A DNA stretch of 59,812 nucleotides. Origin: an uncultured bacterium (GTDB lineage Bacteria > Patescibacteriota > Minisyncoccia > Phycocordibacterales > Phycocordibacteraceae). The stretch lies in NCBI GenBank assembly GCA_963851445.1, contig CAWKPH010000001.1:1-59812 (forward strand), given 5' to 3'. Position 1 is the stretch's first letter. Every line of letters begins with the position of its first letter. This document shows positions 10,046 to 42,424 of the stretch, piece by piece. The position numbers and the translations under genes are program-made. Below the pieces are notes generated by a model. That model saw only the letters and a program-made list of their open reading frames with translations. It was not told the DNA's origin and ran no database searches.

Positions 10046-10075
10046 AGCAGCCTATCATGATTCGATTTATCAGAG

Positions 10076-10162: not shown

Positions 10163-10186
10163 AGGTATCGACAAAAGTCGTATTCC

Positions 10187-10228
10187 TCGTATCCTAGCAT
10201 TTTTGAGAGAGATAGTGCTAGGATACGA
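10187..10228. promoter_or_regulatory. 13-bp perfect inverted repeat between divergent tRNA-Ser and tRNA-Glu genes
   Basis: TCGTATCCTAGCA (10187..10199), a 16-nt spacer, then TGCTAGGATACGA (10216..10228). The function is unknown; an operator or leader hairpin are candidates. Confidence 0.4.
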
Positions 10229-10245
10229 AAGTGCCGCCTTTACAA

Positions 10246-10317
10246 GGCCTCATCGTCTAACGGTTAGGACGTGTCCCTTTCACGGACAAAATCGGGGTTC
10301 GATTCCCCGTGAGGTCA
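10246..10317 (+). tRNA. tRNA-Glu (anticodon TTC)
   Basis: Hand-folded. Acceptor GGCCTCA/TGAGGTC, anticodon arm TGTCC-CTTTCAC-GGACA and T-arm GGGGTTCGATTCCCC. Confidence 0.9.
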
Positions 10318-10397
10318 CATTGTTTGGATCAAGAACCTGGCGGCGAACCCAAATATCATTGCAACAAAAGGCCAAGGAGGTCGTATAATCCGTATAT

Positions 10398-11459: not shown

Positions 11460-11462
11460 TAA

Positions 11463-21512: not shown

Positions 21513-21584
21513 GTGCCACCAGCAGGAATCGGACCTACATTTAGGGCTTAGGAGTCCCTCGTTCTATCCATTGAACTATGGCGG
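21513..21584 (-). tRNA. tRNA-Arg (anticodon CCT), with non-canonical positions
   Basis: Hand-folded. Acceptor GCCGCCA/TGGTGGC, anticodon loop CTCCTAA and T-arm GTAGG-TCCGATT-CCTGC. There is an A31-G39 mismatch and C instead of T at T-loop position 55. Confidence 0.7.
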
Positions 21585-21603
21585 CTTAGGATGAGACTAA
21601 CAT

Positions 21604-21650: not shown

Positions 21651-21899
21651 TTAAGCCCCGATGCCAAGCGCCTGTGTTAATTTCTCCTTATCGAACCCCA
21701 CAATCACTTCCTTATCAATCACAATCACTGGTACGGCGAGCTTGCCGGTTAAATCCACCACTTCTTGACGCCTCGCGGGGTCAGCTGCAGCATTATATTC
21801 CGTATAGTTTACGTCATTCTCCTTAAAAAACTCCTTTGTCATCTGACAGAAATGACAGGTGGGCGTGCTATAGATTACAACATTTTTATCGGTGGCCAT
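21651..21899 (-). CDS. glutaredoxin-like protein (NrdH/YruB type)
   Basis: 82 aa. VVIYSTPTCHFCQMTKEFF carries a CxxC motif in a thioredoxin-fold context, and VPVIVID follows. Confidence 0.85.
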   Translation of the reverse strand: MATDKNVVIYSTPTCHFCQMTKEFFKENDVNYTEYNAAADPARRQEVVDLTGKLAVPVIVIDKEVIVGFDKEKLTQALGIGA

Positions 21900-21958: not shown

Positions 21959-22723
21959 TTACTTCGTTTTATTGTCACCTTTAATCATATTGAACGCCTC
22001 TTGCACAGTTGTCATGAATTGTGCAGGGAAAATAATAGTCGAATTCTTCTCGACACTGATCTCAGCCATGGTTTGAAGGGTGCGCAACTGAAGCGCGACA
22101 GGGTGCGCGCTCATGATGTCTGCAGCCTCTCCGAGCTTTACGGCTGCCTGGAATTCCCCTTCTGCCGCAACAATCTTCGCACGCCGCTCACGTTCCGCCT
22201 CAGCCTCTTTTGCCATTGCCCGCTGCATGTTATCCGGAAGTGTGATGTCCTTAATTTCGACTGCCGTCACCTCGATACCCCATGGCTCGGTATGGCCATC
22301 AATCACCTCCTTAATCTTTTGGTTGATGTTCAGTGTCTGTGAGAGGAGCTGATCGAGACTGAACTGCCCCACGATATTGCGAACAGTCGTCTGACTAATC
22401 TGATTGATTGCAGAACTCACATTCTCAATGGCAATTACTGACTTGGCAGCGTCGGCAGTGTGATAATAAGCAACGGCAGCGATGTCGATTGATACGTTGT
22501 CTTTCGTGATGATCTTCTGCGATGGAATGTTCATCGTGATAGTACGAAGCGATACTCGTGTCATCATTTCAATGATCGGTATGAGGAAGATGAGTCCTGG
22601 CCCGCGTACGTCTTTAAATCTGCCTAGTGAGAATACGACTCCTCGATCATATTCCTTGACGATGCGGATTGATGAAAACAGGAGAACAATAGCGATGACG
22701 AGGATGCTGTAAGTTATGGACAT
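21959..22723 (-). CDS. SPFH/band-7 (stomatin/slipin-like) membrane protein
   Basis: N-terminal TM segment, VKEYDRGVVFSLGRF, then the PSQKIITKDNVSIDIAAVAYY block and a charged coiled-coil tail AMAKEAEAERERRAKIVAAEGE. The start could be 22723 or 22813. Confidence 0.85.
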   Translation of the reverse strand: MSITYSILVIAIVLLFSSIRIVKEYDRGVVFSLGRFKDVRGPGLIFLIPIIEMMTRVSLRTITMNIPSQKIITKDNVSIDIAAVAYYHTADAAKSVIAIENVSSAINQISQTTVRNIVGQFSLDQLLSQTLNINQKIKEVIDGHTEPWGIEVTAVEIKDITLPDNMQRAMAKEAEAERERRAKIVAAEGEFQAAVKLGEAADIMSAHPVALQLRTLQTMAEISVEKNSTIIFPAQFMTTVQEAFNMIKGDNKTK

Positions 22724-22809
22724 GGTGGTGAGATTATTGGTGTCGAGGATGCTAGCACTATAGTTCAATCTGGGAGCGATGCAATGTGGGCATGCATGTC
22801 GCTTCGGCA

Positions 22810-23976
22810 TCACTCCATTGCGGCTGAAGCTGTAATTGAGGATGAGCCTGGCTGATTGACCTGGACATGGCTCGAGAGAAGTCGGTCATTGATGATTACA
22901 AAACCAAGCGCAACGACAACGAGAGACATAGCTCCAAGTGTGGCAGTCATACGCGGCAAGCGACTACGATAAATGAGAGCGGCTATAAGCACGGAGATAA
23001 AGAATGCTGCAATTATGATGAATATTGTATTAGCTACAGTGAATGGCGATGCTAGAAGTTTTTGGAACTCGCCTGGTTGAAGTGCGAACTCGGTTCCTGA
23101 GAGGTTGGAGGTCTCTGTGCCGAGCACACTGGAGTTTGGAGCTTTTGCGGGTACCGCAGATGGCTCGGTCTCTGGGGCAAGCCCTACCGGGTTACTTGTC
23201 GTCATGAGTTCGGTTGGTGGTGGAATTGCTTCACTCGATTTTGCGGTAGTGAGTTTTGTAGGTGGCGCTGGTGGACTCGGTGTTGGCGCCGTATTTGTTG
23301 GTAGTGTCGGAACCACTCCTACATCTCCGGTACCTCCAAGGTCAGATGATGCTCCGCCCTCAGGTGTCGCGAATTCCTGCACAACGAATATTGCAGATTG
23401 TCCTTCATACATGCCAGTGGCCATGCCAACACCTGTTTCGGTATATTGCTGCTTTAATATATTAGCGCGGTGTGTAGGTGAATTCATCCATGCATTTACA
23501 ACTGCATCCGAATCAGTGAAATTCACGGCCAAGTTCTCTCCTGCATACTGGAAGTTATACCCGACCAGATTGAACCAGTACCATGGCGTAATACCACTAG
23601 GACTCACGTGAGCAAAGTATCCTTTTGTTGCCTCATCATTGGCCTTATCTTGGGCCGCTTCGGTGAGCAGCGGATTCACTGTGAGTGCTGGAAGGCCATT
23701 ACCCGTGCGCTGGGTATTGATGAGGTCGGCAACAACAGCTGGAAGAATACTGGCGAGGTAATTCTGGCTCTTAAACACGAGTGAACTTTGCGCCATTACT
23801 CCCACCTCAAGGATGAGAGCGAAACAGAGTATGCTCATGACAATTTCGCGCTTCAGGACATGCGGATGATGGTTATTTTCCTTCATCGGCAAGACTGTGT
23901 GCTTGAAGTGATGAACGAGGGTCTTTCTGCGGCGAGGAGTGCGCAAGATCTTGGATGAAATCTTTTTAGCAGCCAT
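22810..23976 (-). CDS. membrane-anchored CAP/SCP (PR-1-like) domain protein with a Pro/Thr-rich linker
   Basis: GYFAHVSPSG, YAGENLA and WMNSPTHRANIL are CAP-domain motifs. An N-terminal TM segment, the PT-rich stretch PTLPTNTAPTPSPPAPPT and two C-terminal TM segments complete the protein. Confidence 0.75.
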   Translation of the reverse strand: MAAKKISSKILRTPRRRKTLVHHFKHTVLPMKENNHHPHVLKREIVMSILCFALILEVGVMAQSSLVFKSQNYLASILPAVVADLINTQRTGNGLPALTVNPLLTEAAQDKANDEATKGYFAHVSPSGITPWYWFNLVGYNFQYAGENLAVNFTDSDAVVNAWMNSPTHRANILKQQYTETGVGMATGMYEGQSAIFVVQEFATPEGGASSDLGGTGDVGVVPTLPTNTAPTPSPPAPPTKLTTAKSSEAIPPPTELMTTSNPVGLAPETEPSAVPAKAPNSSVLGTETSNLSGTEFALQPGEFQKLLASPFTVANTIFIIIAAFFISVLIAALIYRSRLPRMTATLGAMSLVVVALGFVIINDRLLSSHVQVNQPGSSSITASAAME

Positions 23977-24027: not shown

Positions 24028-24062
24028 GAACATCTCGCACCTAACCAAGGTGCGAGATGTTC
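24028..24062 (-). terminator. 14-bp perfect hairpin downstream of the PG-binding gene
   Basis: GAACATCTCGCACC-TAACCAA-GGTGCGAGATGTTC, 28 nt past the stop at 24090. The T-tract is weak. Confidence 0.5.
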
Positions 24063-24089: not shown

Positions 24090-24611
24090 TTACGGGAGTA
24101 TAGGAGCTGAGACGCCGTTCGTTGGACAAGATATGTGGTTTATCTCCCATTTCGTGGTCTTGTATACGTAGCCCGTGGGGGTACTTGCGCTCTGGAGACC
24201 AAGGGGTACCCACGGAGCAAGAACACTTGCACTCTGTTGGGTCTGGAATTCCTCAACTGCCTTGAAGGTCATAGGACCAAAGTATCCAGTTACTGGAATG
24301 CTTAGTCCAAGTTGTTGGTTAAGGAAAGTTTGAAGGAGTTCCACCTGATCAGCCGAATTGTTCCTACCTTCACGCAAGTATGAGGTGAGCTGAGGACCAC
24401 ATTCAGCTCCAAGGACTGCAGGAGCTCCAGAAGAAGTTGATGTACCAAGAACTTGACCTTGAGGCTGAGCTGACTGACCCGAGATTCCAAAGAATCCTCC
24501 AAAACCTACAGAGGGACCGCCGCCGCCGTACTGTGCATGTACGAGCGGGGACGATATAAAAAACAATCCTCCAAAAACAATTAGACTGAAGACGATTTTT
24601 TGATAACTCAT
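24090..24611 (-). CDS. secreted peptidoglycan-binding-domain (PG_binding_1-like) protein
   Basis: Signal/TM N-terminus, a Gly-rich linker, then VELLQTFLNQQLGLSIPVTGYFGPMTFKAVEEFQ, the typical PG-binding repeat pattern. Confidence 0.7.
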   Translation of the reverse strand: MSYQKIVFSLIVFGGLFFISSPLVHAQYGGGGPSVGFGGFFGISGQSAQPQGQVLGTSTSSGAPAVLGAECGPQLTSYLREGRNNSADQVELLQTFLNQQLGLSIPVTGYFGPMTFKAVEEFQTQQSASVLAPWVPLGLQSASTPTGYVYKTTKWEINHISCPTNGVSAPILP

Positions 24612-24672
24612 AAATTAAGGTTTAAATTATTATTGTCTGCATTATAACACAAAGCTCTGAAATGCCCATTAC

Positions 24673-26322
24673 TTACAAATATACTATACAGAGTAAAATT
24701 GCAGTTAGCAAGATAGTATAAATACCCAGCATTTTGAGTTGCCAAATCTGAAGAGATACTGCTGTGATCTGACCTTCTGCCATTTGCCTCTCGTGAGTTT
24801 CTTCCATGGAACGGTACATCATCCACAGCAGCATTAGAGAAAAGAATGAGTTATAGAATATCCAAAACTGAAGAAAATAATAATTATAATTAAGCAAATG
24901 AATCATTCCAAGGCGGAATGCTAGCGCAATAAGGGAGAAATAGGCTAAGACGTATATATATAAGACTACAACAGCTTGTCTGAATGCAAGAGACACTCCG
25001 AGAGATTTTACGTTCGTTGGTATCCAACCAACGCTTGATTTTAACATTGTAGTTATTACCGCATGACTGTACGCATAGACCTGTACGAAAAGTGCCTGGA
25101 AACTTCCCCATCTAAATGGGGCAATTGCGAAGAAAAATAGGATGAGGAATCCCCAGACCGTGGCTGGATAAAATAGCATCCCTCCCGTAAAAGAGATGGT
25201 GCTGTTATAGAAGAATAAGGCCCAGAAGAGTTGAAAAGAGAATATGATGGAAATAGGTTGATATAAATAAAATAAGAAACCAACAGAATAGCACCACTTT
25301 GTTTTCCATGAAATCTTTGATTCCCAAAAATCCTTACTAAGCGCTAACGTGATACTACCAGTTGACCATCTATGTTGTTGATGAAAATAAGAATGAGCAT
25401 CGGAAGGACAGACACCGATAGCTAAGATTATAGGGATGTATTTCACTCGCCATCCGGCATTAGTTAGCCTAAAGCCGGTGATGGCATCTTCGCTGTGTTC
25501 CACCATCACCGGACCTCCGATCGAGTCGAGCGCCTTGCGCCGATATATTGCATTTGACCCACAACAAATAGCTCCAGCGAATCGATCTCTAGAAACTTGT
25601 ATATAGCGGTAAAAAGGCTCTTGAACCTGACCTGCTCCATACTCTAAAGACGAACGTTTGTGGACCTTATTTGAGGCTTCAAAATATTGAGGAGATTGTA
25701 CTATGGCTGTTTTTTCATTGGTCATATATGGTAATAAATCATGCAGAAAATCAGGATGCGGAGCGAAATCCGCATCAAATATTGCAATGAACTCATTCGC
25801 AGAGTGACCGAATGCATATTTAAGGTTTCCTGCTTTTTTCATATAGCCTTTATCGGGGCGCGCTAGATATTTAAAACCGTACTCTTTTGCTACGCGCTCA
25901 TGTTCTCCGCAATTCTCCTTAGAATCGTCTAATACATACACTTTTTTGTTAGAATATCTGAGCTCAGAAACGTTTCTCCATGTATTTTCAATCAATGAGA
26001 AATCCTCTCCACAAATTGGCAAAAAAACGTCAACGGACGGTTCTTCACGATCTTGCCAATAATCTCTTATGAGAGCTTCATGCTCAGGTATATTGTACTG
26101 GCGATAAAAAAGATTCAAACTGTAACTTAAAATAAAGTAGACTGTGAAGAATATGAGAAACGGTGCAGCGACATATCGATAGAATGGAACATAAATAACT
26201 GCGCCACTAAAACCTAGTAATATACAAAGCCAGGTTAAAATACTAATTATATAAACACCACGCACCAACCATGTTGGTGTTCTTCTAATATATAAATATT
26301 TATCTATATCCTTTGGATCCAT
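24673..26322 (-). CDS. processive family-2 glycosyltransferase (cellulose/beta-glucan synthase-like)
   Basis: D, DxD, ED and QxxRW signature in order: VLDDSKE, FDADFAP, QSPQYF, SEDAITG and QQHRWSTG. TM helices flank it on both sides. I saw no PilZ-like C-terminus. Confidence 0.85.
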   Translation of the reverse strand: MDPKDIDKYLYIRRTPTWLVRGVYIISILTWLCILLGFSGAVIYVPFYRYVAAPFLIFFTVYFILSYSLNLFYRQYNIPEHEALIRDYWQDREEPSVDVFLPICGEDFSLIENTWRNVSELRYSNKKVYVLDDSKENCGEHERVAKEYGFKYLARPDKGYMKKAGNLKYAFGHSANEFIAIFDADFAPHPDFLHDLLPYMTNEKTAIVQSPQYFEASNKVHKRSSLEYGAGQVQEPFYRYIQVSRDRFAGAICCGSNAIYRRKALDSIGGPVMVEHSEDAITGFRLTNAGWRVKYIPIILAIGVCPSDAHSYFHQQHRWSTGSITLALSKDFWESKISWKTKWCYSVGFLFYLYQPISIIFSFQLFWALFFYNSTISFTGGMLFYPATVWGFLILFFFAIAPFRWGSFQALFVQVYAYSHAVITTMLKSSVGWIPTNVKSLGVSLAFRQAVVVLYIYVLAYFSLIALAFRLGMIHLLNYNYYFLQFWIFYNSFFSLMLLWMMYRSMEETHERQMAEGQITAVSLQIWQLKMLGIYTILLTAILLCIVYL

Positions 26323-26483
26323 GTCTTGGAGATTTATACAACTATATTTATAGCAGAATAAAGAATCTACTTAATATCTCAAAGTGCCCAAACTTAGCAC
26401 TTATAGTATGATAGCGGCATTCTAATATGGATAAGATATATGTCAAAATTGACATATATCTTATAGTTGAGATTCTAAAATGT

Positions 26484-28213
26484 ATGATTAGCTATTATGA
26501 ACGACTTGCGTCACATGTGCTTTTCTTCGGCATTTTTGTTGTGTGCATATTAAATCTCGAACTATTTCTAGGGATTTCTATTCCAAGACTAATCTTACCC
26601 TCTGCTTATATAGCTTATCTTTTAATTATATTACTCATAAAATTCTTGATGAATCAAAGAGTGGAGAAAAATGATGTTCTGATAGTTATCATTCTACCAG
26701 TTTTATTTCTCATCGGATCATTTCTGTTAGCTCATACCTATGATTTCACATTCGACGGCGAGAATTACCACCAGACCGCAGTCATTTCTCTTACAAATGG
26801 TTGGAATCCAATCAGAGATGCACAACTCGTAATACCCGCCCCTGTGGGCTTATACGGGATTTCGGGGGAATTTAGTAAGCCTTATGTAGCTGGTTATCCA
26901 AAAGCACTTTGGCTTATACAAAGTTCCATATACACACTTACAGGGCATATCAACTCGGCTGTAGTTACCAATCTCATTGTAGGATTATTAGCGTTCATTT
27001 TTCTTTCTTCTTTGCTTTTAAGGCTAGGGGGGTAAGCAAGACATGGACCTATCTTATTACGACATGCGGAGTCTTGGGAGTAAATTTCATTCAACAGTTT
27101 TTTTCCTTTACTGCAGATGGTTTTAGCTATGAAATGTCTATAATCTGCCTCGTTTCTCTAGTATCTTTGATGATAGATAGCAATAAAATTAGATCGTTTT
27201 TCATGTTTCTCTGCTCCTGGCTGTTCTTAATCGGAACTAAGTATAGCAATTTTTATATTGGTTTTGGTTTTGGTTTAGTTTGCTTATTATCACTTTTTTT
27301 AATTTATCGGCGCTCTCCCCAGATGAACTTGAGGTCAGTGATTTATCTTGGGTTTTGCGCTGCAATATTAGCGGTTCTTGTTCTATTTGACCCATTCCTT
27401 GTAAACATCTATAAATATGGTTCTCCAATCTATCCTGTTAATTATCAATGGGCAGCTAACGATTTACTGGCGGAAAATATCCCACACAATCTGTCAGGTG
27501 CTAATAAATTTGAATTATTGTTTTATGGAATCTATTCCGAAACGCAAACCCCATCAGCTGCAAGTGATCCTAGCAATATCGCTCAACTAAAGATTCCCTT
27601 TACTGTAGGACCTGGCGAGCTTTCAAATATTGCTGCCGTAGAACCATCGGAAAGGGTTTCAGATGCGGGGGTCCTGTATAGTGGGGTATTTACACTTAGC
27701 CTTATTATACTTCTTATACTGTATCTGTTTGATTCGTCAAAGCGAGATAAATTCTTATTAAGAATCTGTGCTTGTATTATAATTCTCATACTTATATGTG
27801 CGCTCGCTACCCCAACACCAAATGTCATTAGATATACTCCTCTACTGACTTTTATTCCGGTTCTATCGCTCATAGTGATAGTTTTAATTGATCGGCCTCG
27901 AATTTTCTCTTGGCTACGAGTTGGAAAATTTTTACTTGCGGGATTTATAGTTATTAACACTGCTATATCGTTGTACTGTATCGAGACCTCAACTTTGCGA
28001 GAGACACTCCAATTAGACAGGCAATTGTCGATAATGAGTAAAAGCGGGATAGTTTATAACGTGTATGCTCCGGGTTTCTATTCCAGCTATACTCGACTGA
28101 AGGAGGCTGGTGTTAAATTTTATGAAACTCAGAATTTGGGATGCGATAATCCACAGACTTTGGATTTTACTTACGGAGAGTATGCAACAGAATTTTGTCC
28201 GAGAAAAAGCTAA
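26484..28213 (+). pseudogene. polytopic membrane protein, paralog of 28304..30028, with its reading frame broken once at a G6 tract; could be a pseudogene, a sequencing error, or a -1 frameshift/phase-variable gene
   Basis: ORFs 26427..27035 and 26909..28213 together align along the full length of the intact 574-aa neighbour. Shared blocks include ERLASHVLFF, HTYDF, NGWNPIRD, IQQFFS..DGFSYE, GTKYSN, YGSPIYP, ENIPHNL and GCDNPQTLDFTY. The frames differ by -1 at 27027..27035. Confidence 0.75.
27027..27032 (+). repeat. G6 homopolymer immediately followed by an in-frame TAA, at the site of the frame break
   Basis: CTA GGG GGG TAA in the upstream frame. The downstream frame is reached by reading GTA from 27032, equivalent to one extra G. 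Confidence 0.9.
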
Positions 28214-28303
28214 CGATTTTATTTAACTTTGAGAGTAAATAATAATTTAGATGGTCAACAATTACCTATATGATATATAGTTACTAGAGCTTCTATATTT
28301 CTC

Positions 28304-30028
28304 ATGGAAACTTATCCGGAACGGCTTGCGTCACATGTGCTTTTCTTCGCTATTTTTTTCCTAGTCATAGTGAATGTTGGCTTTTTCATTGGAATTCCAA
28401 TTACCCATTTCATCCTCCCACTTGCTTATATCCTATACTTGACAATCCTATTCTTAATTACTCGTAGATCAGAACGAAAGGTAGAGAGACTTCATATTAT
28501 ATCTGCGATGGTGATTGTGTTAATTTTTGGCATAGGAATATTCATCTTTGGGCATACCTATGATTTCAGCTATGATGGACAAAGCTTTGACGAAACGGCG
28601 CTAATATCGCTTGCCAACGGTTGGAATCCCATTAGAGATTCTCAAGTAGTGATACCTGCCCCGACTGGCCTATACGGGATCGGGGGTGAATTTGGTAGAC
28701 CGGATGTAATTGGATATCCAAAGATGCTTTGGGAAATTCAAGCCTCGATTTATAAACTCACGGGCCGCATAAATTCCGGTATGATTACCAATTTAGTAGC
28801 GGCCTTAGCGGCGTTTATATTTCTTTACTATCTGCTTCAGCGTCTTGGATTAAGACGATTCTGGGCTGCATTTACTACCTCCCTGGCTGTTTTAGGACCT
28901 GTCTTCATTCAGCAACTGTTTTCATATATGTCTGACGGCTTTGGCTATGAGCTGTCTCTTATAGCCATCGTTTCTCTAATAACTCTTGCTCTCGAGAAGG
29001 GAAAGACACGGCCTCTGTTAGTGTTTATGTTTTCGTGGCTTTTTCTTGTAGGTACAAAATACAGTAACGGATGCGTAGCCTTCGTTCTCGCTTTTGTATG
29101 CTTAATTATCTTAATTCAAATTGTGCGTGATAGTCCGAAGTTGTTTAAACCAATTTTCAAAATTCTTTTAGGAGGTGCTCTAGTGGGAGTCATAATACTG
29201 ATCGAACCTTATGTAATTAATCTCATACGATATGGGTCACCGCTATATCCTGATAATGCTACATCAGCTATTGCAAACGTAGAGACCGAAAATATTCCAC
29301 ACAATCTCGTAAGCGATAACAAGTTTGAATTAATCTTCTATGGAATTTATTCACAAAGACAACCATCTTCAAATTCGACCGCTGCCGAGAATGTAGCTCT
29401 ATTGAAGATTCCCTTCTCAACAAGTCTCTCAGAGCTTCAGAATTCTGCTGTCGCGGGACCCTCTGATAGGGTTGGGTCGGGGGGCATTTTTTTTAGCGGA
29501 GTATTTACTTTGAGTCTTATCATTTTAGTATGTGCATTGCTTTTTGAATTCTCTTCATATGGAGAACTGGTACTTGGGCTTACAAGTCTCATTGTCTTTC
29601 TTATTCTTGCCTGTGCGCTTCCCTTGCCCGCTCCGAATGTGCTTCGATTTACACCACTTATAACTGTTATACCTGTATTTATACTTATAAGCCTTCTTCT
29701 TATAGATAAATCTAAGCCGCCCTCTTGGGTACGCGTTGCGATACGTATCTTAGCTCTTTCTATCATCATTAACATAGGTATGTATATCGTTCTCGTTGGT
29801 GACACAAGATCGAATGTAACTCGTGAAATAAATCAACAACTGATATCAATGCGCGACAGCGGATTAACCTATAATGTTTATGCTGCAGGCTTTTATTCCA
29901 GCTATATTCGGTTGGAAGAAGCTGGTATTAAATTTCACATGAGTTCGAACATTGGTTGCACAAATCCGCAAACTTTAGATTTAACATACGCTGCATATGC
30001 AACTACTTTTTGTCCTCAGAAAAAATAG
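28304..30028 (+). CDS. uncharacterised large polytopic membrane protein (possible GT-C-like glycosyltransferase/polymerase), intact paralog
   Basis: 574 aa with many hydrophobic segments. An acidic first-loop motif HTYDFSYDGQSFDE and a conserved C-terminal soluble module (YNVYAAGFYSSYIRLEEAGIKF...GCTNPQTLDLTYAAYATTFCP) are present. The family assignment is inference only. Confidence 0.7.
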   Translation: METYPERLASHVLFFAIFFLVIVNVGFFIGIPITHFILPLAYILYLTILFLITRRSERKVERLHIISAMVIVLIFGIGIFIFGHTYDFSYDGQSFDETALISLANGWNPIRDSQVVIPAPTGLYGIGGEFGRPDVIGYPKMLWEIQASIYKLTGRINSGMITNLVAALAAFIFLYYLLQRLGLRRFWAAFTTSLAVLGPVFIQQLFSYMSDGFGYELSLIAIVSLITLALEKGKTRPLLVFMFSWLFLVGTKYSNGCVAFVLAFVCLIILIQIVRDSPKLFKPIFKILLGGALVGVIILIEPYVINLIRYGSPLYPDNATSAIANVETENIPHNLVSDNKFELIFYGIYSQRQPSSNSTAAENVALLKIPFSTSLSELQNSAVAGPSDRVGSGGIFFSGVFTLSLIILVCALLFEFSSYGELVLGLTSLIVFLILACALPLPAPNVLRFTPLITVIPVFILISLLLIDKSKPPSWVRVAIRILALSIIINIGMYIVLVGDTRSNVTREINQQLISMRDSGLTYNVYAAGFYSSYIRLEEAGIKFHMSSNIGCTNPQTLDLTYAAYATTFCPQKK

Positions 30029-30031
30029 CTA

Positions 30032-31677
30032 CTAGTCTAATTGATGCATTGCAAAAACATCCGCCATTTTATATTTGTAGTTTCCTCGAATTAAAACCTG
30101 TACATGTGTCACAAATGTCAGAAGAGCTTCTGAAAAGAAGAAATAATACATTAGAATGCTATTAAGTACGGCCCAGAAAAGGATCTGAGGAGCGCTATGC
30201 TTTGTGTAAAAACCAACAACTATATCAATGAGGGTAATTGAGCCTAGTATAAAATGAATTATGAATAAGGAAGGAGTGTAGGTTTTGCCTTGATTGTCTC
30301 CCTTTGGGGTGACTACGTAAGTGAGCTTCTTCCCTCGAACTACGCCTATGAATGCGAGAAAATAGATTGGCCATGCAGCGATAGAAACCAGCCGAGCACT
30401 AAGCAATAGACCTCGTTCCGTTTCCGGCTGAATATTGAATCGCTGAAGCCAGAGTTGGAACATGACTTGGTATAGAATAAGAGGTATGTATAGGAGCAAA
30501 ATTGGTAATAATGCCATCTTGGCTGATGTGATGCCGAAAAAGAAATAAAGCGTAAGAAGGATGATACCAACGGCCTGCGCTATGCCCGAGAAATAGAACT
30601 GCTGAAGTAGAGTGTAATTAAGCATGCGCCTGAAATTCATTTTTGGCAGAAGATTTGGCGCATGCCGAAACACTATATCCATACAACCATATGCCCACCG
30701 CATCTGCTGACCAAAATACGAAGCCCACGTGACAGGTCCTTCACCAACTAGAAGAACCTCTGGAACATAGACACTCTTCCACTTGCTTTCATGAGCATAC
30801 AATTTCATACCAGTGAGCATATCTTCTGCAATATGCGCGGTGTATCCGTCGATATCCCTGCATGCCTTTGTACGCAATATATGGTTTGCACCGATGAGCA
30901 AAGTCATATCGTGATGGAAGAAGCCTTTTTGAAGAGGTCCATAAAACCCGTACGTCTGTTCAGCGGCACCGCGCGCAATCCATGATTCATCGAGATTGCC
31001 GTACACTTGGGGCGTCCCAACGAAGGCAACAGCTGGATCCCTGAAGTATCCTAGTGTACGCATGAGAAAATCTCTCTTTGGGATGAAATCGATATCGTGC
31101 TGCGCGACTATGTCATATCTCTGATCATAGTGGTGAAGCCATGAGTTATAATTTCCTCCTTTGGTTTTTGCCTTAAATTTACCGCTGGGAGAACTGAACA
31201 TTTTTTTCCTTTCCGAGAATAATGCATTACGCCATATTTTTCACAGATACTCTTTGCCGCTGGATCGTCGCCCTCATCAAGGAGCCATGTGTCGTGAGGA
31301 TAAGAAACCTGCGTCATTGCCTCGAGCGTCTTCTCAAGCATATCGTAGGGCTCTGCGCCTGGGACGAAGGCTGTCAGATATGCAACGCGCAGATTTTCCT
31401 CAGGAGCAAGGGTTTGCTTCGGATGCTTCATCTCTGAAGCCATGTACCAAGCAAAGATTTCCATTACAATCTGGTGCCAGACGATGTAGGTAAGAAGTAA
31501 GAAAAGTAGGTAGTCAAATGTATGTGCCCATCCAACCCAGTTATGAGAAATATGCGAGGGCTGGAACCACCATATGCCAAAAGCGGTTGTGAGTGAAATT
31601 CCAACAACAAAAAGACAGGTAAAGATTATCTTTTGTGTACCTGTCATTGCGTCTACTTTTTCTACGACCGAGGTCAT
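30032..31677 (-). pseudogene. second processive GT2 (cellulose-synthase-like), with its reading frame broken once at an A7 tract; could be a pseudogene, a sequencing error, or a -1 frameshift/slippage gene
   Basis: The N-terminal ORF 31108..31677 has TM helices, LLDEGDD and YSRKGKK. The C-terminal ORF 30032..31201 has KAKTKGGNYNSWL, QHDIDFIP, TPQVYGN, IAEDMLTG and QQMRWAYG. Joined, they give one complete GT2 like 24673..26322. Confidence 0.78.
31201..31207 (-). repeat. A7 homopolymer (T7 on the plus strand) forming A AAA AAA in the zero frame, at the site of the frame break
   Basis: Minus strand reads CGG AAA GGA AAA AAA TGT. A -1 slip gives ...AAA AAA ATG TTC AGT..., which is the downstream ORF frame. 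Confidence 0.9.
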
Positions 31678-31839
31678 ATTCGCTTGCGTTTTAATTTCAA
31701 ACTCATTACTTCATTGTTATCTAACTTATAACACAGGTGTATATAGATGTCTAATTTCTATGAATATAACAATACTAGTAAGAAGCGGATGAGTTATTGA
31801 TGAGTTTGCAGTTATTAGAACGTTTAATTTGATATACAC

Positions 31840-32931
31840 TTACTTCTTTTGATAAGCGCGCACGTACTCAATGTACATATTTGCAGGCCACACATTGGAC
31901 ATGTCTGGAGTGGATGGCCAACTTCCAGGACCACCAACTGCAAGATTAACAAGCATGTAAAAAGGCTTGTCCGTTTCAGAATTTGCAGGACACGTTGCGT
32001 ATGGTTTCCCATCAAAATAATAGGTAATTCCGGTTGGCTCAATGTCTACGCCATACGTATTAAAACTTTGGGTTATATCTACACCGACGTTGTACCAACC
32101 TCCGCACGACTGGCCATTTACAGTCGAATGCGAACCATAATGAATCATAGTGATTCCCCCTTCTCCTGTAGAACTTGTTCCTCCGAATGCTTCCATAGCA
32201 TCGATTTCAGGAGGCCAACTTTTGTCGACTGGTAGAAGCCAGAATGCAGGCCAGAGACCCTTCCCTTTTGGTAATTTTGCACGCATTTCGAAATACCCAT
32301 ACTCCTGGGAAAAGGAGAATTGGGTCGTGATCATGCCCGAGGTGTACTGTGCCCAAGGTCCCACTGCGGAGCTTATTTGCTGAGTTGCTGGCATTGCCTT
32401 GATGTCGAGTATTCCGTCTGATACCGAAAAGGGATTAGAGGGGTCCATCGCTGCAATGGCAGTTGACTCCTTTTTTAGGAATGCGATGAAGCCAGGGTCT
32501 ACATATACTTCTGCCTCATCATTAGCAGCATTAGTTCGTGAACAAAAGTAATAAACAGTTTGCCAGATACCGGTACCTCCGGGATTGCAAGTGACGTTTC
32601 CATTCGCATCCACATATCGACTGAATGAATTGAATTCACCATCAAATGTAAGAGTCATTCCTTGAAGAAGTGCCGCCGTAGAATCGGTAGGAGAAACGGC
32701 TGCAGCCGAAGTTAAAGGAATGATTTCTCCAGTCGTGCTAAAAGAGGTCGTCGCAGTTGTTTCGGGAGTTGAGGTAGATGACTCGGCACCGGTTCCCATG
32801 CTTAAGGCTAGGGGTCTATTAGTTGCATGACTATTTCTCCATGCAAGCAGGACGACAATTCCAAGAATGAGCACTAAAAATGCTAATCCAAGCAATTTCA
32901 GATATTTTGAACTCCGTCTCATTTGTCTCAT
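31840..32931 (-). CDS. secreted/anchored glycoside hydrolase family 16 (beta-1,3 or beta-1,3-1,4-glucanase-like)
   Basis: N-terminal TM segment and a Ser/Thr linker, then GH16 motifs GLWPAFWLLP and the catalytic E-I-D-x-x-E (WPPEIDAMEAFGG). Confidence 0.85.
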   Translation of the reverse strand: MRQMRRSSKYLKLLGLAFLVLILGIVVLLAWRNSHATNRPLALSMGTGAESSTSTPETTATTSFSTTGEIIPLTSAAAVSPTDSTAALLQGMTLTFDGEFNSFSRYVDANGNVTCNPGGTGIWQTVYYFCSRTNAANDEAEVYVDPGFIAFLKKESTAIAAMDPSNPFSVSDGILDIKAMPATQQISSAVGPWAQYTSGMITTQFSFSQEYGYFEMRAKLPKGKGLWPAFWLLPVDKSWPPEIDAMEAFGGTSSTGEGGITMIHYGSHSTVNGQSCGGWYNVGVDITQSFNTYGVDIEPTGITYYFDGKPYATCPANSETDKPFYMLVNLAVGGPGSWPSTPDMSNVWPANMYIEYVRAYQKK

Positions 32932-33043
32932 TATATACAGGTTATGAAATTATGCTTTTCGAGCCCGGTTCAACGTTCCGATATCGTACTTTTGTCACTT
33001 GGTGGTCTTACGAGATATCGATGCTAGATATTTTATATAAGAG

Positions 33044-33114
33044 TGCGGAATGCGAGAATCGAACTCGCGCCTAGTGCTTGGGAAGCACTCGTTCTACCAC
33101 TAAACTAATCCCGC
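33044..33114 (-). tRNA. tRNA-Gly (anticodon CCC)
   Basis: Hand-folded. Acceptor GCGGGAT/ATTCCGC, anticodon arm AGTGC-TTCCCAA-GCACT and T-arm GCGAG-TTCGATT-CTCGC. Its 3' end faces the AT-rich glycan cluster. Confidence 0.88.
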
Positions 33115-33525: not shown

Positions 33526-35322
33526 CTATCGCTCGCTCTCCTGCACCATTTTCATAAACACATCCTCTGGAATATCTACTTTCGCGTGTACGGCACGTTT
33601 CTTCTTTCCTTTCTTCTGCTTCTCAAGAAGCTTCATTTTGCGCGTAATGTCGCCACCGTAGAGGTAGCCCGTCACGTCTTTACGCAGCGCCGAGAGAGTT
33701 TTGGAGGAAATGATGCGACCGAGCGCCTGAGCCTGAATCTTTGTCACGAACATCTGTCGTGGAAGTATTCCTGCGAGTTTTTCAACCATCTTCTCCCCTT
33801 CCTGCTCAACGCGACGGCGAGAGATGATGCGGGCGAATGCGGGAACGGGTTCCTCAGCAACTAGTATGTCGAGTCGCACCACATCTGCTGGCCGTTCATC
33901 GAGGAATTCATACGAAAGCGAGGCATAACCCGACGAGACATTTTTTACACGATCAAAAAAGCCGCGCATGAGCTCTCGTAGCGGCATTTCAGCGGAGAGC
34001 TCAATACGGTCGTCGCTATACACCTGCGTGTCCATCACGGCTCCCTCGTGATCATGGAAGAGCTGCAAGAGCCCAGAGAGAGCGTCAGGGGGCGTGATGA
34101 GAGTGACTTTGACCCATGGCTCCTCGACTGCAGCTATATCGCCATACTCGGGAAATCGTGACGGAGTGTAGACGGTTTCGCGCTTATTATTCTTCGTCGT
34201 AACGTTGTAGGCGATGGTCGGAATGGTGACGATGAGCGTAAGATCGAACTCGCGCCGCAGGCGTTCTGTGACAATTTCAAGGTGTAGCATACCGAGGAAT
34301 CCACAGCGAAACCCGCGGCCAAGAACGCCGGACGATTCTTCTTCAAACGATAGAGAGGAGTCAGAGAGCCGCAAGCGTTCAAGTGCCTGGCGCAGGTTCG
34401 GTAGATCATCCTGGCTTTCAGGGTATACCGATGCCCAAACAACAGGGCGCGGACGTATGAATTCTCCAAGCGGGCTGAGTGTCCCGTGATCAGCGGCAAT
34501 CGTATCGCCAACAGCAACTATCCCGGCCTCCTTAACGCCAGTCACGATGTAGCCAATCTCGCCAACCGAAAGAGAGTCAGCGGGGGTCTCGTCTGGCATG
34601 AATACGCCAGTCTCAAGAGCTGTGAACCTTTTTCCTGCCGCCATAAATCGTAAGGCGTCGCCCTTCTTAAGCGAACCATCGAAAATACGTGCATACACGG
34701 CAATACCGCGATGCGTTGAGTATGAAAAATCAAAAATGAGCGCGCGAGGCTCGTTCCCTTCACTTGGACGCGGTGAAGGTACTACGCGAATGATTTCTTC
34801 AAGAAGGTCCTCTACTCCCTCGCCAGTGCGACCCGATACAGCGAGAACAGTGTCAGGAGAAATATCGAGCAAGGTTGCGAGCTCAAGGCGTATGTCGTCT
34901 GGGCGCGCCGCAGGCGAATCAATTTTCGAAAGAACCGGGATGATGACACACCCGGCAGCTTTTGCCATGCCGAGCACGGATAGAGTCTGTGCTTGCACGC
35001 CCTGAGTAGAGTCAACAAGAAGAATCACTCCCTCAACCGCCGAAAGTGCGCGCGAGACTTCGTAGGCAAAATCAATGTGTCCTGGAGTGTCGATCAGATT
35101 CAGAATATATTCTTGTCCATCCCGTGCCTTGTAGCGCATACGAGCCGGCTGCATCTTGATGGTGATACCCCGTTCGCGCTCAAGATCCATACGATCGAGC
35201 ACTTGATCACGCATCTTGCGTGCCTCAATCGTTCCGGTTCGTTCAAGAAACCGATCTGCAAGGGTCGATTTTCCATGGTCTATATGTGCCACGATGGAAA
35301 AGTTTCGTATTTGTGTTGTCAT
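33526..35322 (-). CDS. lepA: translation elongation factor 4
   Basis: IRNFSIVAHIDHGKSTLADR G1 motif, DTPGH, and full-length LepA-type C-terminal blocks. Length is 598 aa. Confidence 0.97.
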   Translation of the reverse strand: MTTQIRNFSIVAHIDHGKSTLADRFLERTGTIEARKMRDQVLDRMDLERERGITIKMQPARMRYKARDGQEYILNLIDTPGHIDFAYEVSRALSAVEGVILLVDSTQGVQAQTLSVLGMAKAAGCVIIPVLSKIDSPAARPDDIRLELATLLDISPDTVLAVSGRTGEGVEDLLEEIIRVVPSPRPSEGNEPRALIFDFSYSTHRGIAVYARIFDGSLKKGDALRFMAAGKRFTALETGVFMPDETPADSLSVGEIGYIVTGVKEAGIVAVGDTIAADHGTLSPLGEFIRPRPVVWASVYPESQDDLPNLRQALERLRLSDSSLSFEEESSGVLGRGFRCGFLGMLHLEIVTERLRREFDLTLIVTIPTIAYNVTTKNNKRETVYTPSRFPEYGDIAAVEEPWVKVTLITPPDALSGLLQLFHDHEGAVMDTQVYSDDRIELSAEMPLRELMRGFFDRVKNVSSGYASLSYEFLDERPADVVRLDILVAEEPVPAFARIISRRRVEQEGEKMVEKLAGILPRQMFVTKIQAQALGRIISSKTLSALRKDVTGYLYGGDITRKMKLLEKQKKGKKKRAVHAKVDIPEDVFMKMVQESER

Positions 35323-39586: not shown

Positions 39587-39617
39587 AAAATACAAGCGCC
39601 CACCGTTAGGTGGGTGC
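39587..39617 (-). terminator. rho-independent terminator after rnpB
   Basis: Minus strand reads GCACCCACC-TAAC-GGTGGGCGC followed by TTGTATTTT. Confidence 0.7.
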
Positions 39618-39627
39618 CTGTATTTTT

Positions 39628-40004
39628 GAAACCAATCCGATAAGCCGAATTCTGTTCCTGGCAATTGCCAGGAGACGACCATCTATCTGGGATCGCTGTT
39701 GCCAGCGACCTCGAGCGGCACTCTCCCTATCGATAGGGAGCACGGCCTTGCACTGGGGTAAGGATTTAGCCGTTTCACCTCCTGGGTTGCCCCAAGAGCT
39801 CACCTACGGTCCTTTAGAACCGCAGGTGCTTCCAGCCTTTCGGTAGGAAGCGTCTCTGCTCGCACCTCGCGCCTTACGACGGACGGGTGTTACCCGCTAC
39901 CTTGCTGCACCGCAATTCGTACCGGAGTACGTATACACGGTGCCAGTGTTCGGACTTTCCTCTCCCAAGCCAAGGCATGGGAGCGATCGTCTGGACTGGT
40001 CCAC
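39628..40004 (-). ncRNA. rnpB: RNase P RNA, bacterial type A
   Basis: The minus strand contains the universally conserved GAGGAAAGTCCG (plus-strand coordinates 39951..39962) and ACAGAATTCGGCTTATCGG (compare ACAGAA-NNN-GGCTTA; 39641..39655). P1 pairs GACCAGTCC with GGATTGGTT. Ends are accurate to about 5 nt. Confidence 0.85.
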
Positions 40005-40024: not shown

Positions 40025-42424
40025 CTAGATCTCGCACGTACCCGAAACACAGGCGAGTTCATTTTTGATTTCGGTCTCGTCAGTGCGCTCATACGCATAG
40101 AGTTTTCCATAATCGATATGCTGAAATCGTTGTGCCATCTCTTCGTATTGCTCTTTGGTAATCACTTCATAGGGTGCAAGGCGATAGACGTGGTTTGATC
40201 GTGGAAGAAATGAGAGTCCTCCAACAATCTCCCAATTCTTATAAACCCAGTTGGCAACGGCGATCCATTCGTCCTCACCCACTGAAATGGTCACCGATGG
40301 ATTGTGTTCGGTATAACTTTCTTTCACAAGCTTCCAGTGCTTAAGCTGATCGAGTGCTGAAATATCATCTTTACAAATAGCGCCGTCAGGAGATTTCACT
40401 GGAAACTCGAGAACGAACGTGTTCGCTTCTTCTTCAGTCTGCCCTACTTCCGGATGGTATGGAACGCCTTGGTCACGAAGCATTTTGAAAAGCGAGTCTG
40501 TTGCGCTAATACGTATGCGACGAATGTAATATGGAGAATGACGCGGATGCATACCTGAAGCGACTCCCATGGTTTGTGAAGTGGTGCCCGATGGCTTCAC
40601 ACACGTAATTGCGGTCGACTCGTTAATTCCAAAACGCTCTGCATATTTCTTGTTGGTCTTGATCGTCTCTTTTTTCATTGCTTCAAGCGTACCGGCATCG
40701 CGAACTGCGGGAGAATCCCACTGTCCTGTAATTGAAACGCCAAGAAGGCGTTCTTGCTGGCAATTCTCGATCCATTCCTTTGATAGGTAGCCGAGGTTAA
40801 CCAAGGTTGATTGATAAGTACCGAGAACAGTTGCGAGTCGAGCTTTGCGTACGAGAGATTCTCTCGTGTCGTCAACGCGTGCAATTACTTCGGTTAGATT
40901 ACAAAACTGCTTAGACTTCAGGATAATCTCGCCGCAAGGATTCGTTCCCGCAGGGCCCACAACGCGATCGCTCTTTATATAGCCGCTCTTTTTCCAGAAA
41001 TCCTTGCGGCGCTCTGGAAGCTGATTCATGAGGCCGCCGCGGTTAAAGATGCCTCGTTCTCCTGCTTTTGACTTCATGAGTGCTACCCATTCATCCATGA
41101 ATTCTTCGTTTGACTGGCTTTTGAAGATAGACGGCGGAGTTATTTGCGATGGAACGCTGTGGATTGCTGTTCCAGAATTCGCCTTTCTTTGCATCGCGTA
41201 CGTCGGCGTCATCGAGGTCAGAAAGTGAGATCATAGCGCTCCGGCGTACGCCACCGGCAACAACACACTCGCCTATCTTACAAATTATGTCGTGTGCGTC
41301 GATGTTACGCAGACGACGGCCCTGGCGCGAAAGAATACGATCACGTGAGAATGCAAGGAGACTTCGAAGTGGTTCAGGGCCTGATGCCTTACCGCCCATC
41401 GTCTTGAGGCGGGCGCCTGCGGGACGAACTTGTGAGAAATCAAAATCAATGTCCTTCCCGTCGTACCAAACCTTGAGACCAAGTGTCAGTGCGTCGCACC
41501 AGCCTTCCTTTGAATCTTGCACAACGTGTGTTGCAAATTTCTCGCCTGTTTGAAATGCAATTTGTGGAAGTGCTTGAACATTCGCGCTCTCGACTGGAAT
41601 AACCGACGCCGGTGCCGCACATAGAGATGTACATGATTTCTGCAAAGTCAGAGATCTTTGACGGTGCGATGTAGGAACAGTTGTATGCTGCTACGTTGCA
41701 ACGTCGCACTGCGTCGCCCGCAAATTGCATGAGACGCATGCTCGGGACAATCTCTTGATTGAGAATTGCTTCGCGCAGCTCTCCATATTCCTTGGCGGTG
41801 AGCTTGCTCCCAAGATTCTCGCGCATAAAATTGATGATAGCGATCTACCGTCTCGACCCAGGTCTCGCGACGACCCTCTTCAGGAATCCACTTCGAGTAA
41901 GAACGCAAATATACAAATTCTCCAAGCGAATTTTTTTTAAAATATTTCTTACTTTCTTCTGCGAGTGCGCGTACTGATTCAGGAATCTCGATCTGTTCTG
42001 AGCGGAGTTGATTGCGTTTATCTCTATAAAGGATGTACGCCTTTGCTGCGCCAGTGAAATCATTGAGCATCAACTGTTTCTCGACAGAATCTTGTATACC
42101 TTCGACTGTTGGAAGAAAATTTTTGTACTTTTTTGCAAATCTGGCGAGTTCTCCTGCGACTTGGTGTGCAACCATTTCTGCATCTTCGTATCCTCCTTCG
42201 TTGCCTCCTGCAATCATCGCCTTGTGTATGGCAGCAACAATCTTCTCAAACTCGAACGGAGCGATTCTACCGTCACGCTTTTCAATTCGCGCGATGAGTG
42301 TATGGTATCGTTTCGTATCCTTACTCTCCACTACCTGTTCTTCTACTTTACTAATTACCTTGAGAGGTTTTTTTGCAACCTTTTGGGCACGCGCGAGCAC
42401 CGGAGATTTTGCGGACTTAGGCAT
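40025..42424 (-). pseudogene. nrdJ: class II (adenosylcobalamin-dependent, monomeric RTPR-like) ribonucleotide reductase with an N-terminal ATP-cone; reading frame broken three times
   Basis: Four consecutive ORF pieces (41648..42424, 41446..41826, 41091..41645, 40025..41212) read as one RNR. In order: ATP-cone, IVPSMRLMQFAG, AAYNCSY, MCGTGVGYS/VESANV, RPAGARLKTMGGKASGPEPL, VVAGGVRRSAMISL, ANNSAVY, KAGERGIFNR, GTNPCGEI and the C-terminal redox pair CVSGTCEI (compare CEGGACPIK as I recall it from Lactobacillus RTPR). Confidence 0.82.

Follow-up and report, generated by a model that had tools for sequence, protein, structure and literature searches.

A predicted surface-glycan cluster with two BcsA-like synthases and a pair of GT-C-like membrane proteins, inserted beside tRNA-Gly in an uncultured Patescibacteriota bacterium

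Synthases of the BcsA type (PDB 4HG6 family) translocate their own product. Described three-component glycosylation systems include GtrA/GtrB/GtrC (Shigella, Salmonella phages), CsbB/GtcA/YfhO, GacI/J/K/L, ArnC/ArnEF/ArnT, UbiA/Emb, and GT136. In Citrobacter youngae, the system comprises ORF15, ORF14, and ORF12, the latter being the founding member of GT136 (PMC11127046). Mixed-linkage glucan synthases have been described as BgsBA and as RiGT2 of Romboutsia (PMC10374906). Here, we analyze a DNA stretch of 59,812 nucleotides, herein referred to as the window (assembly GCA_963851445.1, contig CAWKPH010000001.1, positions 1 to 59,812 of the forward strand), from an uncultured bacterium of the Phycocordibacteraceae (Patescibacteriota). 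Between two tRNA genes, the window carries a cluster encoding two BcsA-like family-2 glycosyltransferases (GT2a and GT2b), two polytopic membrane proteins (memA and memB), a family-16 glycoside hydrolase (GH16), a CAP-domain protein, and a PG_binding_1 protein (PGB). With moderate confidence, we propose that this cluster makes a synthase-dependent surface polymer, probably of β-glucan type, which would be optionally decorated outside the membrane, from polyprenyl-phosphate sugars, by GT-C-like add-on enzymes. A sequence-only reading of this DNA had described a surface-glycan cluster here, and the two BcsA-like synthases, the laminarinase-like GH16, and the PG-binding protein bear that description out.

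The GT2a gene (24673..26322, minus strand) encodes a BcsA-like, membrane-embedded protein of 549 aa without a PilZ domain, identified by the Pfam GT2 families, TIGR03030, and motifs. It matches the TIGR03030 CelA model at 1.3e-48, with residues 52-515 aligned to model positions 90-573. The best solved relatives are BcsA chains (7e-31), the phmmer match to BcsA extends to residue 438, and hydrophobic segments flank the catalytic domain on both sides. The motifs of GT2a are DDS132, DAD183, SED277, and QQHRW315. The second BcsA-like membrane protein, GT2b (30032..31677, minus strand), was identified by Pfam, TIGR03030, and motifs as well. Its gene is interrupted by a frameshift, and the reconstructed protein of 548 aa contains DEGDD134, DID195, AED284, and QQMRW324. 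The two synthases are 27% identical to each other, and GT2b is 58-67% identical to an intact 560-aa GT2 gene in the homologous locus L207. Their CelA scores are 166 and 116 bits, against an equivalog cutoff of 699. By the D, DxD, (T/S)ED, and QxxRW motifs, both are classed as predicted processive GT2 synthases. The sequence-only reading had listed two cellulose-synthase-like GT2 genes with all four motifs, which Pfam and TIGR03030 confirm; it had overlooked the frameshift in GT2b. Pfam and NCBIfam scans of the block detected none of the marks of a Bcs system (PilZ domain, BcsB, BcsC, or GH8 gene) and no export component of another kind.

In the loci L217, L221, and L222 (8001..11700), as well as in L220 and L227, homologues of GT2a and GT2b form an adjacent pair with overlapping stop-to-stop frames, accompanied by a convergent GH16 gene. 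Such recurrence suggests joint action of the two synthases, be it as a heteromeric complex or on two linkages. The GT2a homologues of L216, L223, L225, and L226 lie in bins of 56-68% guanine plus cytosine (GC) content labelled Proteobacteria or Binatia.

The GH16 gene (31840..32931, minus strand) encodes a predicted laminarinase-like endo-β-1,3(4)-glucanase with an N-terminal membrane anchor. The PF00722 match is above the cutoff (2.3e-19), and the motif EIDAME (E-x-D-x-x-E) is found at residue 242, in agreement with the GH16 enzyme and catalytic motif noticed by the sequence-only reading. The match to NCBIfam EglC (3e-54) is below the family cutoff. The best solved matches are laminarinases and β-1,3-glucanases (1e-26 to 4e-26 over the catalytic domain), and the homologue in L207 is 67% identical. 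This laminarinase-like enzyme suggests that the polymer is a β-1,3 or mixed-linkage glucan. Genes beside related clusters are compatible with other sugars as well; they encode an NAD-dependent epimerase (L217), GH26 and GH18 enzymes (L221), and a UDP-glucose/GDP-mannose dehydrogenase (L001).

memB (28304..30028, plus strand) is an intact GT-C-like membrane protein of 574 aa, assigned through AlphaFold 2 models, Foldseek, and invariant residues. Its paralog memA (26484..28213, plus strand) is interrupted by a frameshift and comes to 576 aa with one G added; the start at 26484 is the likely one, judged from the alignment with memB. memA is 57% identical to the homologue P0002 and 50% identical to memB. 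Since memA is nearer to P0002 than to memB, the paralogs appear to be old and probably differ in specificity. memA keeps the motifs YDFxFDG, GWNP, YPK, DG, TKYSN, LKIPF, and RY, which hold the invariant residues of the family. According to the sequence-only reading, these were two membrane proteins of about 570 aa belonging to no family that could be named. The lack of a name stands, as a Pfam search with memB gave no match at E <= 10 and the family likewise has no Pfam model, whereas paralog A is frameshifted and not intact. In NCBIfam, only weak matches were found, to the Leptospira families LA_3751/LA_3752 ('putative glycosyltransferase') and LIC_10190 (membrane protein).

The family is large. 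Whereas a word-indexed search gave ten relatives, full profile searching retrieved 3,119 cluster representatives, of which 1,573 scored at E <= 1e-30. With memB alone as the query, no relatives were found in genome contigs or metagenome contigs. The back-translated motif WWARYxPQxW yielded 120 genomic loci, all true members, which span Paenibacillus, Brevibacillus, Aneurinibacillus, Pedobacter, Mucilaginibacter, Hyphomonas, Pelosinus, Acidobacteriota, Ignavibacteria, and others. Among viral contigs, the single match was spurious (the family hidden Markov model did not match), and thus these contigs gave no evidence for a phage-borne system. In L004 (3808..10841), a family member lies between a GT2 gene and phage-type genes (K1-lyase_C; weak matches to Phage_phiTE_241_C and GH72), a hint that one lineage has it in the setting of a phage or depolymerase.

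Two AlphaFold models of memB were obtained, one from 9 sequences (predicted local distance difference test, pLDDT, 78.5; predicted template modelling score, pTM, 0.83) and one from 36 sequences (pLDDT 88.7, pTM 0.92). When these were compared with the PDB by Foldseek, the first 14 matches of the first model and the first 20 matches of the second were all GT-C enzymes, with probabilities of 0.6-1.0. The top five matches of the better model are the arabinosyltransferases EmbB and AftA (7bvf_B, 6x0o, 8if8_C, 7bvc_B). Seven residues are invariant in 36 diverse members: D87, D91, G92, D211, K252, K368, and R448. Model helix boundaries and the positive-inside rule give memB a topology of about 13 transmembrane helices that runs from an N-terminus inside to a C-terminus outside, and all invariant residues fall on the predicted outer face. 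D87 and D91 (YDxSxDGQ) start a long external loop, in which short helices (90-104 and 141-153) precede the next transmembrane helix. The loop is predicted to be outside by RRSERKVER before the third transmembrane helix and RR after the fourth. The start of a long external loop is the usual place of the GT-C catalytic acid. The C-terminal domain is small, of alpha/beta type, and predicted to be outside; its conserved Cys pair is consistent with this extracytoplasmic position. By architecture and acidic loop, the two membrane proteins look like GT-C-fold glycosyltransferases.

In the close subfamily (35-57% identity), a membrane GT2 is found within one gene of the family member in 8 of 9 independent contexts. 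These GT2 proteins are of several divergent types, and three of the mem/GT2 pairs have overlapping reading frames. The arrangement of mem, GH16, and GT2b is repeated in L207. A general pairing of the wider family with synthases was considered and rejected, as a CelA-like GT2 is nearby in only 2 of the 120 loci. Within the window, memA and memB, which are low in GC, lie between GT2b and GT2a, two genes that adjoin or overlap in other genomes. No member of the membrane family was found in 19 loci with GT2a homologues, taken from species-representative genomes with 8-kb flanks, several of the contigs being short. Recurrent neighbors in these 19 loci are PGB (4 loci), CAP (5 loci), and GT2b with a convergent GH16 (5 loci). 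The absence of the family from these loci, together with the position of memA and memB between usually adjacent synthases, points to an optional, decorating role rather than an essential one in export or polymerization. The recurrent core thus consists of CAP, PGB, GT2a, GT2b, and GH16, with the GT-C genes as optional add-ons.

Gene fusions and neighbors of the homologues give indirect evidence on the sugar donor. In P0008 (57% identical) and P0034, a GtrB-type GT2 is fused to the family domain, the GT2 part being PgfS-like or ArnC-like (NCBIfam); in P0044, an Acyl_transf_3 domain is fused to it. A GtrA gene adjoins the family gene in L001 and L002/L003, and L207 encodes a GtrB-like GT2 of 312 aa with two C-terminal transmembrane segments. 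Synthase, flippase, and GT-C occur as a three-component set in L001, L002/L003, and L207. The GtrB fusions of close homologues indicate a lipid-linked sugar donor, and by analogy the family would use a polyprenyl-phosphate-linked sugar. L001, with P0008 at 10001..12528, is full of frameshifts, which split both the C-terminal half of its GT-C and its GT2a homologue. In the wider family, a gene for a UbiA-like prenyl-phosphate phosphoribosyltransferase was found in 48 of the 120 loci, a DUF212 (PAP2-like) gene in 20, and a HAD gene in 15. Nearly all loci with the latter two also have UbiA, and most of these genes are adjacent on the same strand. Loci L088-L206 (e.g., L094 2082..5239; L088 2762..5273) contain HAD-GT-C-UbiA operons of Bacteroidota, as in Pedobacter, and the Firmicutes loci have pairs of DUF212 (PAP2-like) and GT-C genes with UbiA nearby. 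The UbiA-phosphatase arrangement is that of the pentofuranose three-component pathway, which has been compared with the Gtr and mycobacterial systems (PMC11127046). The operons of the wider family are candidate unrecognized glycosylation systems of the polyprenyl-phosphate-pentose type in cultivable genera.

From the observed domain and motif content, fold assignment, neighborhood statistics, and fusions, we infer the enzyme activities, the polymer, and its acceptor role as follows. GT2a and GT2b would each polymerize a UDP-sugar at the cytoplasmic face and thread the chain through their own membrane channel, and in a single-membrane cell this would require no BcsB, BcsC, Wzx, Wzy, or ABC partner. 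The extracellular, membrane-anchored GH16 may trim, release, or transglycosylate the polymer. memA and memB would have an outer-face active site formed by the invariant D87-x3-D91-G loop with K252, K368, and R448. On the model of three-component systems, a polyprenyl-phosphate carrier would supply the sugar that they attach on the outside of the membrane. The likeliest acceptor would be the nascent synthase-made polymer, which would receive side branches. memA and memB would thus be optional diversifying enzymes and not export machinery, and the donor synthase and flippase would be encoded elsewhere in the genome than in this window.

Several observations weigh against this scheme. Similarity of sequence to an established GT-C family was found neither in Pfam nor in the PDB: by sequence profile, memB resembles no solved GT-C chain, and hhalign against E. 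coli ArnT gave a probability of 0.1. The Foldseek TM-scores are low (0.30-0.40, best E-value 4e-4), so that the global fold match is weak; memB is called GT-C-like because the ranking of its matches is consistent, not because the superposition is tight. The window contains no homologues of GtrB, GtrA, UbiA, DUF212, or HAD genes and hence no three-component set. In the 19 GT2a loci, a GT-C gene may lie farther off than the flanks reach. Moreover, adjacency to a synthase does not identify the acceptor, a role for which the linkers of CAP, GH16, and PGB, rich in Ser, Thr, and Pro, are just as plausible. Finally, if the frameshifts in memA and GT2b are real, half of the system would be inactive.

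The sequence-only reading had suggested that the two 570-aa proteins could be the missing export or polymerization parts of the system; in this rival model they would be BcsB or Wzy analogues or a scaffold needed by the synthases. A block without another export component, and the tight, persistent adjacency of the family to membrane GT2 genes, some in overlapping frames, would suit such partners. Nevertheless, we regard this role as very unlikely. Five of the 19 GT2a loci that lack the family are complete GT2a-GT2b-GH16 sets, evidence that the synthases work in its absence, and the wider family, rarely found near a CelA-like GT2, is accompanied by UbiA and phosphatase genes instead. The Foldseek check of 28304..30028, which the earlier reading had proposed against GT-C, Wzy, and BcsB-like folds, gave GT-C enzymes throughout its top matches and no BcsB or transporter; the invariant Asp, Lys, and Arg residues face outward; the GtrB fusions point to a lipid-linked donor; and synthases of the BcsA type need no help in moving their product. 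It is less improbable, and still unlikely in our view, that the GT-C-like proteins use polyprenyl-phosphate sugars for other acceptors, namely proteins (by PMT-like O-glycosylation of the CAP, PGB, and GH16 linkers), peptidoglycan, or lipid. The top structural matches are arabinosyltransferases that build polysaccharides, whereas the protein glycosyltransferases PMT, STT3, and DPY19 are also among the fold matches. The most constant neighbor in the close subfamily is a membrane GT2 and no particular secreted protein, while the wider family mostly occurs without a nearby synthase, and PG_binding_1 genes flank the family gene in L002/L003. As for the secreted proteins of the window, CAP, PGB, and GH16 do carry low-complexity S/T/P/G linkers, but CAP and PGB are widespread without the family.

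The interruptions of memA and GT2b bear on whether the system is functional. memA is split into 26427..27035 and 26909..28213, with the frameshift at a G6 run (27027..27032), and GT2b into 31108..31677 and 30032..31201, with the frameshift at an A7 run (T7 on the plus strand, 31201..31207). One added base restores each gene, and the restored products are collinear with the intact homologues P0002 and the 560-aa GT2 of L207. If real, these frameshifts could make memA and GT2b phase-variable by slippage at G6 and A7, or could mark pseudogenes that lost their function recently as the island decayed. Phase variation is classically known from genes that modify surface glycans; each break falls precisely within a homopolymer run and is mended by one extra base; the A7 site of GT2b is also an in-frame-0 A_AAA_AAA slippery heptamer; and similar runs in intact genes are unshifted (G6 at 29479, T8 at 29487, A7 at 26021, C6 at 38072). 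On the other side, tracts of 6-7 nt are short for efficient phase variation, and both genes keep their conserved motifs without further damage. In addition, the window has an essential, highly conserved class II (ATP-cone) ribonucleotide reductase gene (40025..42424, minus strand, about 835 aa) whose reading frame is broken into four by inserted single bases at three sites outside homopolymers: c near 41835, a near 41596, and g near 41128. Its fragments are each 67-86% identical to relatives, which suggests indel errors of the assembly, a very recent pseudogene being less likely. As the assembly thereby appears indel-prone, the two island frameshifts are probably artefacts, and real frameshifts are, in our judgment, distinctly unlikely. 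Assembly error was therefore ranked above both phase variation and programmed -1 frameshifting as the cause of the breaks in the A7 and G6 runs. At about 39616..39993 (plus strand), open reading frames of relatives align in two frames, which meet near 39724-39800. Either a further small gene may carry a frameshift here, or the comparison may have picked up an antisense frame as an artefact.

The PGB gene (24090..24611, minus strand; PF01471, 1.4e-8; GC 0.485) encodes a secreted protein, as the sequence-only reading had proposed; it has a signal peptide followed by a linker rich in Gly and Ser. The CAP/YkwD-domain gene (22810..23976, minus strand; Pfam CAP, 1.5e-16) encodes a membrane-anchored protein with a Pro/Thr/Ser-rich linker. 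PGB homologues adjoin GT2a homologues in L212, L214, L215, and L216, and PG_binding_1 genes flank GT2 in L002/L003. CAP homologues adjoin GT2a or GT2b-GH16 in L212, L213, L216, L221, and L222. Because both recur beside GT2a homologues, PGB and CAP belong in the cluster; the CAP gene, which lay outside the block as first delimited, should be counted in it. For the same reason, a classification of PGB as a backbone gene, suggested by its backbone-like GC and by PGB-CAP pairs located elsewhere in relatives, was dropped. Such pairs without any GT2 are found in L016, L022, L025, and L032 (about 3.5-4.5 kb), upstream of a g37023 homologue on the other side of LepA. The pair is thus mobile in the lineage relative to the tRNA-Gly site. 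In CAP, PGB, and GH16, the domain is separated from the anchor or signal sequence by long low-complexity linkers rich in Ser, Thr, Pro, and Gly (about 100 residues in GH16). Linkers of this composition are typical targets of O-glycosylation, and those of the three proteins could be alternative acceptors for the GT-C-like enzymes.

The cluster is an accessory insertion at this site. The relatives used for comparison are metagenome-assembled genomes of Parcubacteria, Paceibacterota, and Kaiserbacteria, in which LepA and its neighbors are 71-84% identical. Their backbone consists of LepA, DivIC, tRNA-Gly(CCC), glutaredoxin, tRNA-Arg, and tRNA-Phe, followed by Hsp20-like and PrsW-like genes. In the window, tRNA-Gly(CCC) (33043..33114, minus strand) marks the near boundary of the insertion, with its 3' end towards the island, and the far backbone boundary is marked by tRNA-Arg(CCT) (21513..21585, minus strand) together with the glutaredoxin gene (21651..21899, minus strand, identified by Pfam). 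The spacing between tRNA-Gly and tRNA-Arg is 11,458 bp in the window and 370-1,432 bp in relatives, as measured in the 5 of 10 checked relatives with tRNA-Gly at this position. The extra DNA contains, in order, genes for an SPFH/Band-7 protein, the CAP-domain protein, the PG-binding protein, GT2a, memA, memB, GT2b, and GH16. The first of these (21959..22813, minus strand; PF01145, 3.7e-40) encodes a membrane protein and has backbone-like GC (0.48); between DivIC and g20832, relatives were not found to carry it. A survey of 80 related LepA-DivIC loci, extending 10 kb from LepA, found neither GT2a or GT2b nor the membrane family or GH16 in any of them, and the block is accordingly accessory and not core at this locus.

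The block is also compositionally foreign. The GC content of 24612..32931 is 40.0%, versus 48.7% in the remainder of the window. Eight 1-kb windows from 24 to 32 kb are all 2.7-6.1 standard deviations (SD) below the outside mean of 0.487 (SD 0.022; Mann-Whitney p = 3e-6). The tetranucleotide L1 distance between the island and the rest of the window is 0.326, whereas 16 equal-sized chunks have a mean of 0.104 and a maximum of 0.13. GC at third codon positions (GC3) is 0.34-0.44 in island genes and about 0.44-0.56 in backbone genes, so the dip is not merely an effect of hydrophobic amino acids. The sequence-only reading had called the block AT-rich on hand counts of 14 G/C in 60 positions at 27241..27300 and 36 in 60 at 34861..34920, and both counts are exact. 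The extent that it gave holds in that low GC begins at about 24.55 kb; the PG-binding gene placed within the block is itself not AT-rich, at 48.5%. The reading was also right that the block ends at the 3' end of tRNA-Gly(CCC) and shows no integrase. Of the usual features of genomic islands, a tRNA-adjacent position, absence from relatives, and atypical composition were found. Domain scans of 21.9-33.0 kb detected no integrase or recombinase, and no att-type direct repeat of the tRNA-Gly 3' end was found at the far boundary. Thus, the segment from tRNA-Gly to glutaredoxin/tRNA-Arg is an accessory insertion whose mechanism is not visible. A homologous cluster in L002 adjoins a large serine recombinase.

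Candidate regulatory elements were found around several genes of the cluster. The divergent promoter region of GT2a and memA (29% GC) contains a perfect 16+16-nt palindrome, ATAAGATATATGTCAA aa TTGACATATATCTTAT (26431..26464, unstranded), which overlaps a near-consensus TTGACA-16-TAGAAT promoter-like site for GT2a and is a possible operator at which a cluster regulator could bind. Two copies of a 30-nt repeat, which share 73% identity, lie just upstream of the PG-binding gene (24622..24651) and of GT2b (31706..31735). On the coding strand, the repeat reads TGTGTTATAAT / TGTGTTATAAG and resembles an extended -10 promoter element; both transcription units may be regulated in common. The frequency of promoter-like sites in the block does not exceed that in shuffled sequence. 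A strong terminator-like hairpin with a 15-bp stem (24028..24062, minus strand) follows directly after the PG-binding gene.

Envelopes of Patescibacteria (candidate phyla radiation, CPR) are almost uncharacterized. Their cells live attached to hosts, and surface polymers are therefore likely to govern attachment and phage recognition. The analysis yields a testable recurrent gene set (two synthases, GH16, CAP, and PGB) and an optional GT-C-like pair that would diversify the polymer. For a large family without a Pfam model or a solved relative, the fold, the invariant residues, and the operon partners (GtrA/GtrB, or UbiA and a phosphatase) provide a biochemical hypothesis, which is testable in Paenibacillus, Brevibacillus, and Pedobacter as cultivable carriers of the wider family. 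A bolder proposal, which we hold only tentatively, is that memA and memB found an uncharacterized GT-C family of CAZy level (>3,000 clusters), whose partners in other phyla would be UbiA and phosphatase operons, that in Patescibacteria its members were recruited to branch or anchor a polymer of paired BcsA-like synthases outside the membrane, and that GT2a, GT2b, GH16, CAP, and PGB are a signature envelope-glycan machine of these ultra-small episymbionts. Under this proposal, it would be the first polyprenyl-phosphate-sugar-dependent decoration of a synthase-dependent polysaccharide.

Literature searches on the NCBIfam family names and on CPR glucan clusters returned nothing relevant. What appears undescribed, as far as could be found, is the joining of GT-C add-ons to a paired synthase cluster in Patescibacteria, together with the unannotated GT-C-like family. 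The earlier statement that this is not a described system holds for the pairing of a synthase cluster with GT-C enzymes and not for the parts, since each type of component is known.

Like the GT-C components of three-component systems, the family consists of polytopic enzymes with a predicted GT-C fold and an outward-facing acidic loop. Close homologues are fused to or located next to a GtrB-type synthase and a GtrA-type putative flippase, and the family has the character of an optional, horizontally mobile source of diversity. The wider family resembles the pentofuranose pathway in its operons with UbiA and a phosphatase. Unlike these systems, memB has no detectable sequence similarity to ArnT, Pfam GT-C families, or solved chains, and has two additional N-terminal helices before the catalytic-loop helix. 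The partner glycan would here be made by BcsA-type synthases and not by a Wzy, ABC, or LtaS route, and the window is without a donor synthase or flippase. memB also differs from the published description of GT136, with a catalytic Asp before the first transmembrane helix, 11 helices, and a C-terminal β-rich carbohydrate-binding module (PMC11127046).

Mycobacterial EmbA/B/C and AftA provide the best structural matches of the memB model, with TM-scores of 0.33-0.40 and 11-16% identity. memB is different from them in its length of about 570 aa and in its small C-terminal domain with a Cys pair in place of large carbohydrate-binding modules. The mycobacterial donor pathway (UbiA-type Rv3806c, PAP2 Rv3807c) has a parallel in the UbiA-like, PAP2-like, or HAD genes linked to the wider family, whereas the subfamily of the window is linked to GtrA/GtrB and GT2 synthases and not to UbiA.

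The nearest characterized analogues of the synthases are BcsA, BgsA, RiGT2 (PMC10374906), and CrdS. As in BcsA/BcsB/BcsZ, BgsBA, RiGT2, and CrdASC, the synthases of the cluster are membrane GT2 proteins with D, DxD, (S/T/A)ED, and QxxRW motifs and putative CelA-like transmembrane helices, and as in other synthase-dependent β-glucan systems, a dedicated endoglucanase gene lies alongside. In contrast to those systems, PilZ, BcsB, and BcsC are absent, GH16 replaces GH8, two divergent synthases recur as an adjacent pair, and CAP and PG_binding_1 wall proteins accompany them. The CelA score of 166 is also far below the equivalog cutoff that marks Bcs cellulose synthases. The GH16 enzyme itself is like the laminarinases (Thermotoga 3azx; 4dfs) in its catalytic domain, with the catalytic motif intact, and unlike them in its N-terminal membrane anchor and long Ser/Thr-rich linker. 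As it is encoded in a biosynthetic cluster, its substrate may be an endogenous polymer, to be trimmed or transglycosylated, and not a nutrient to be digested.

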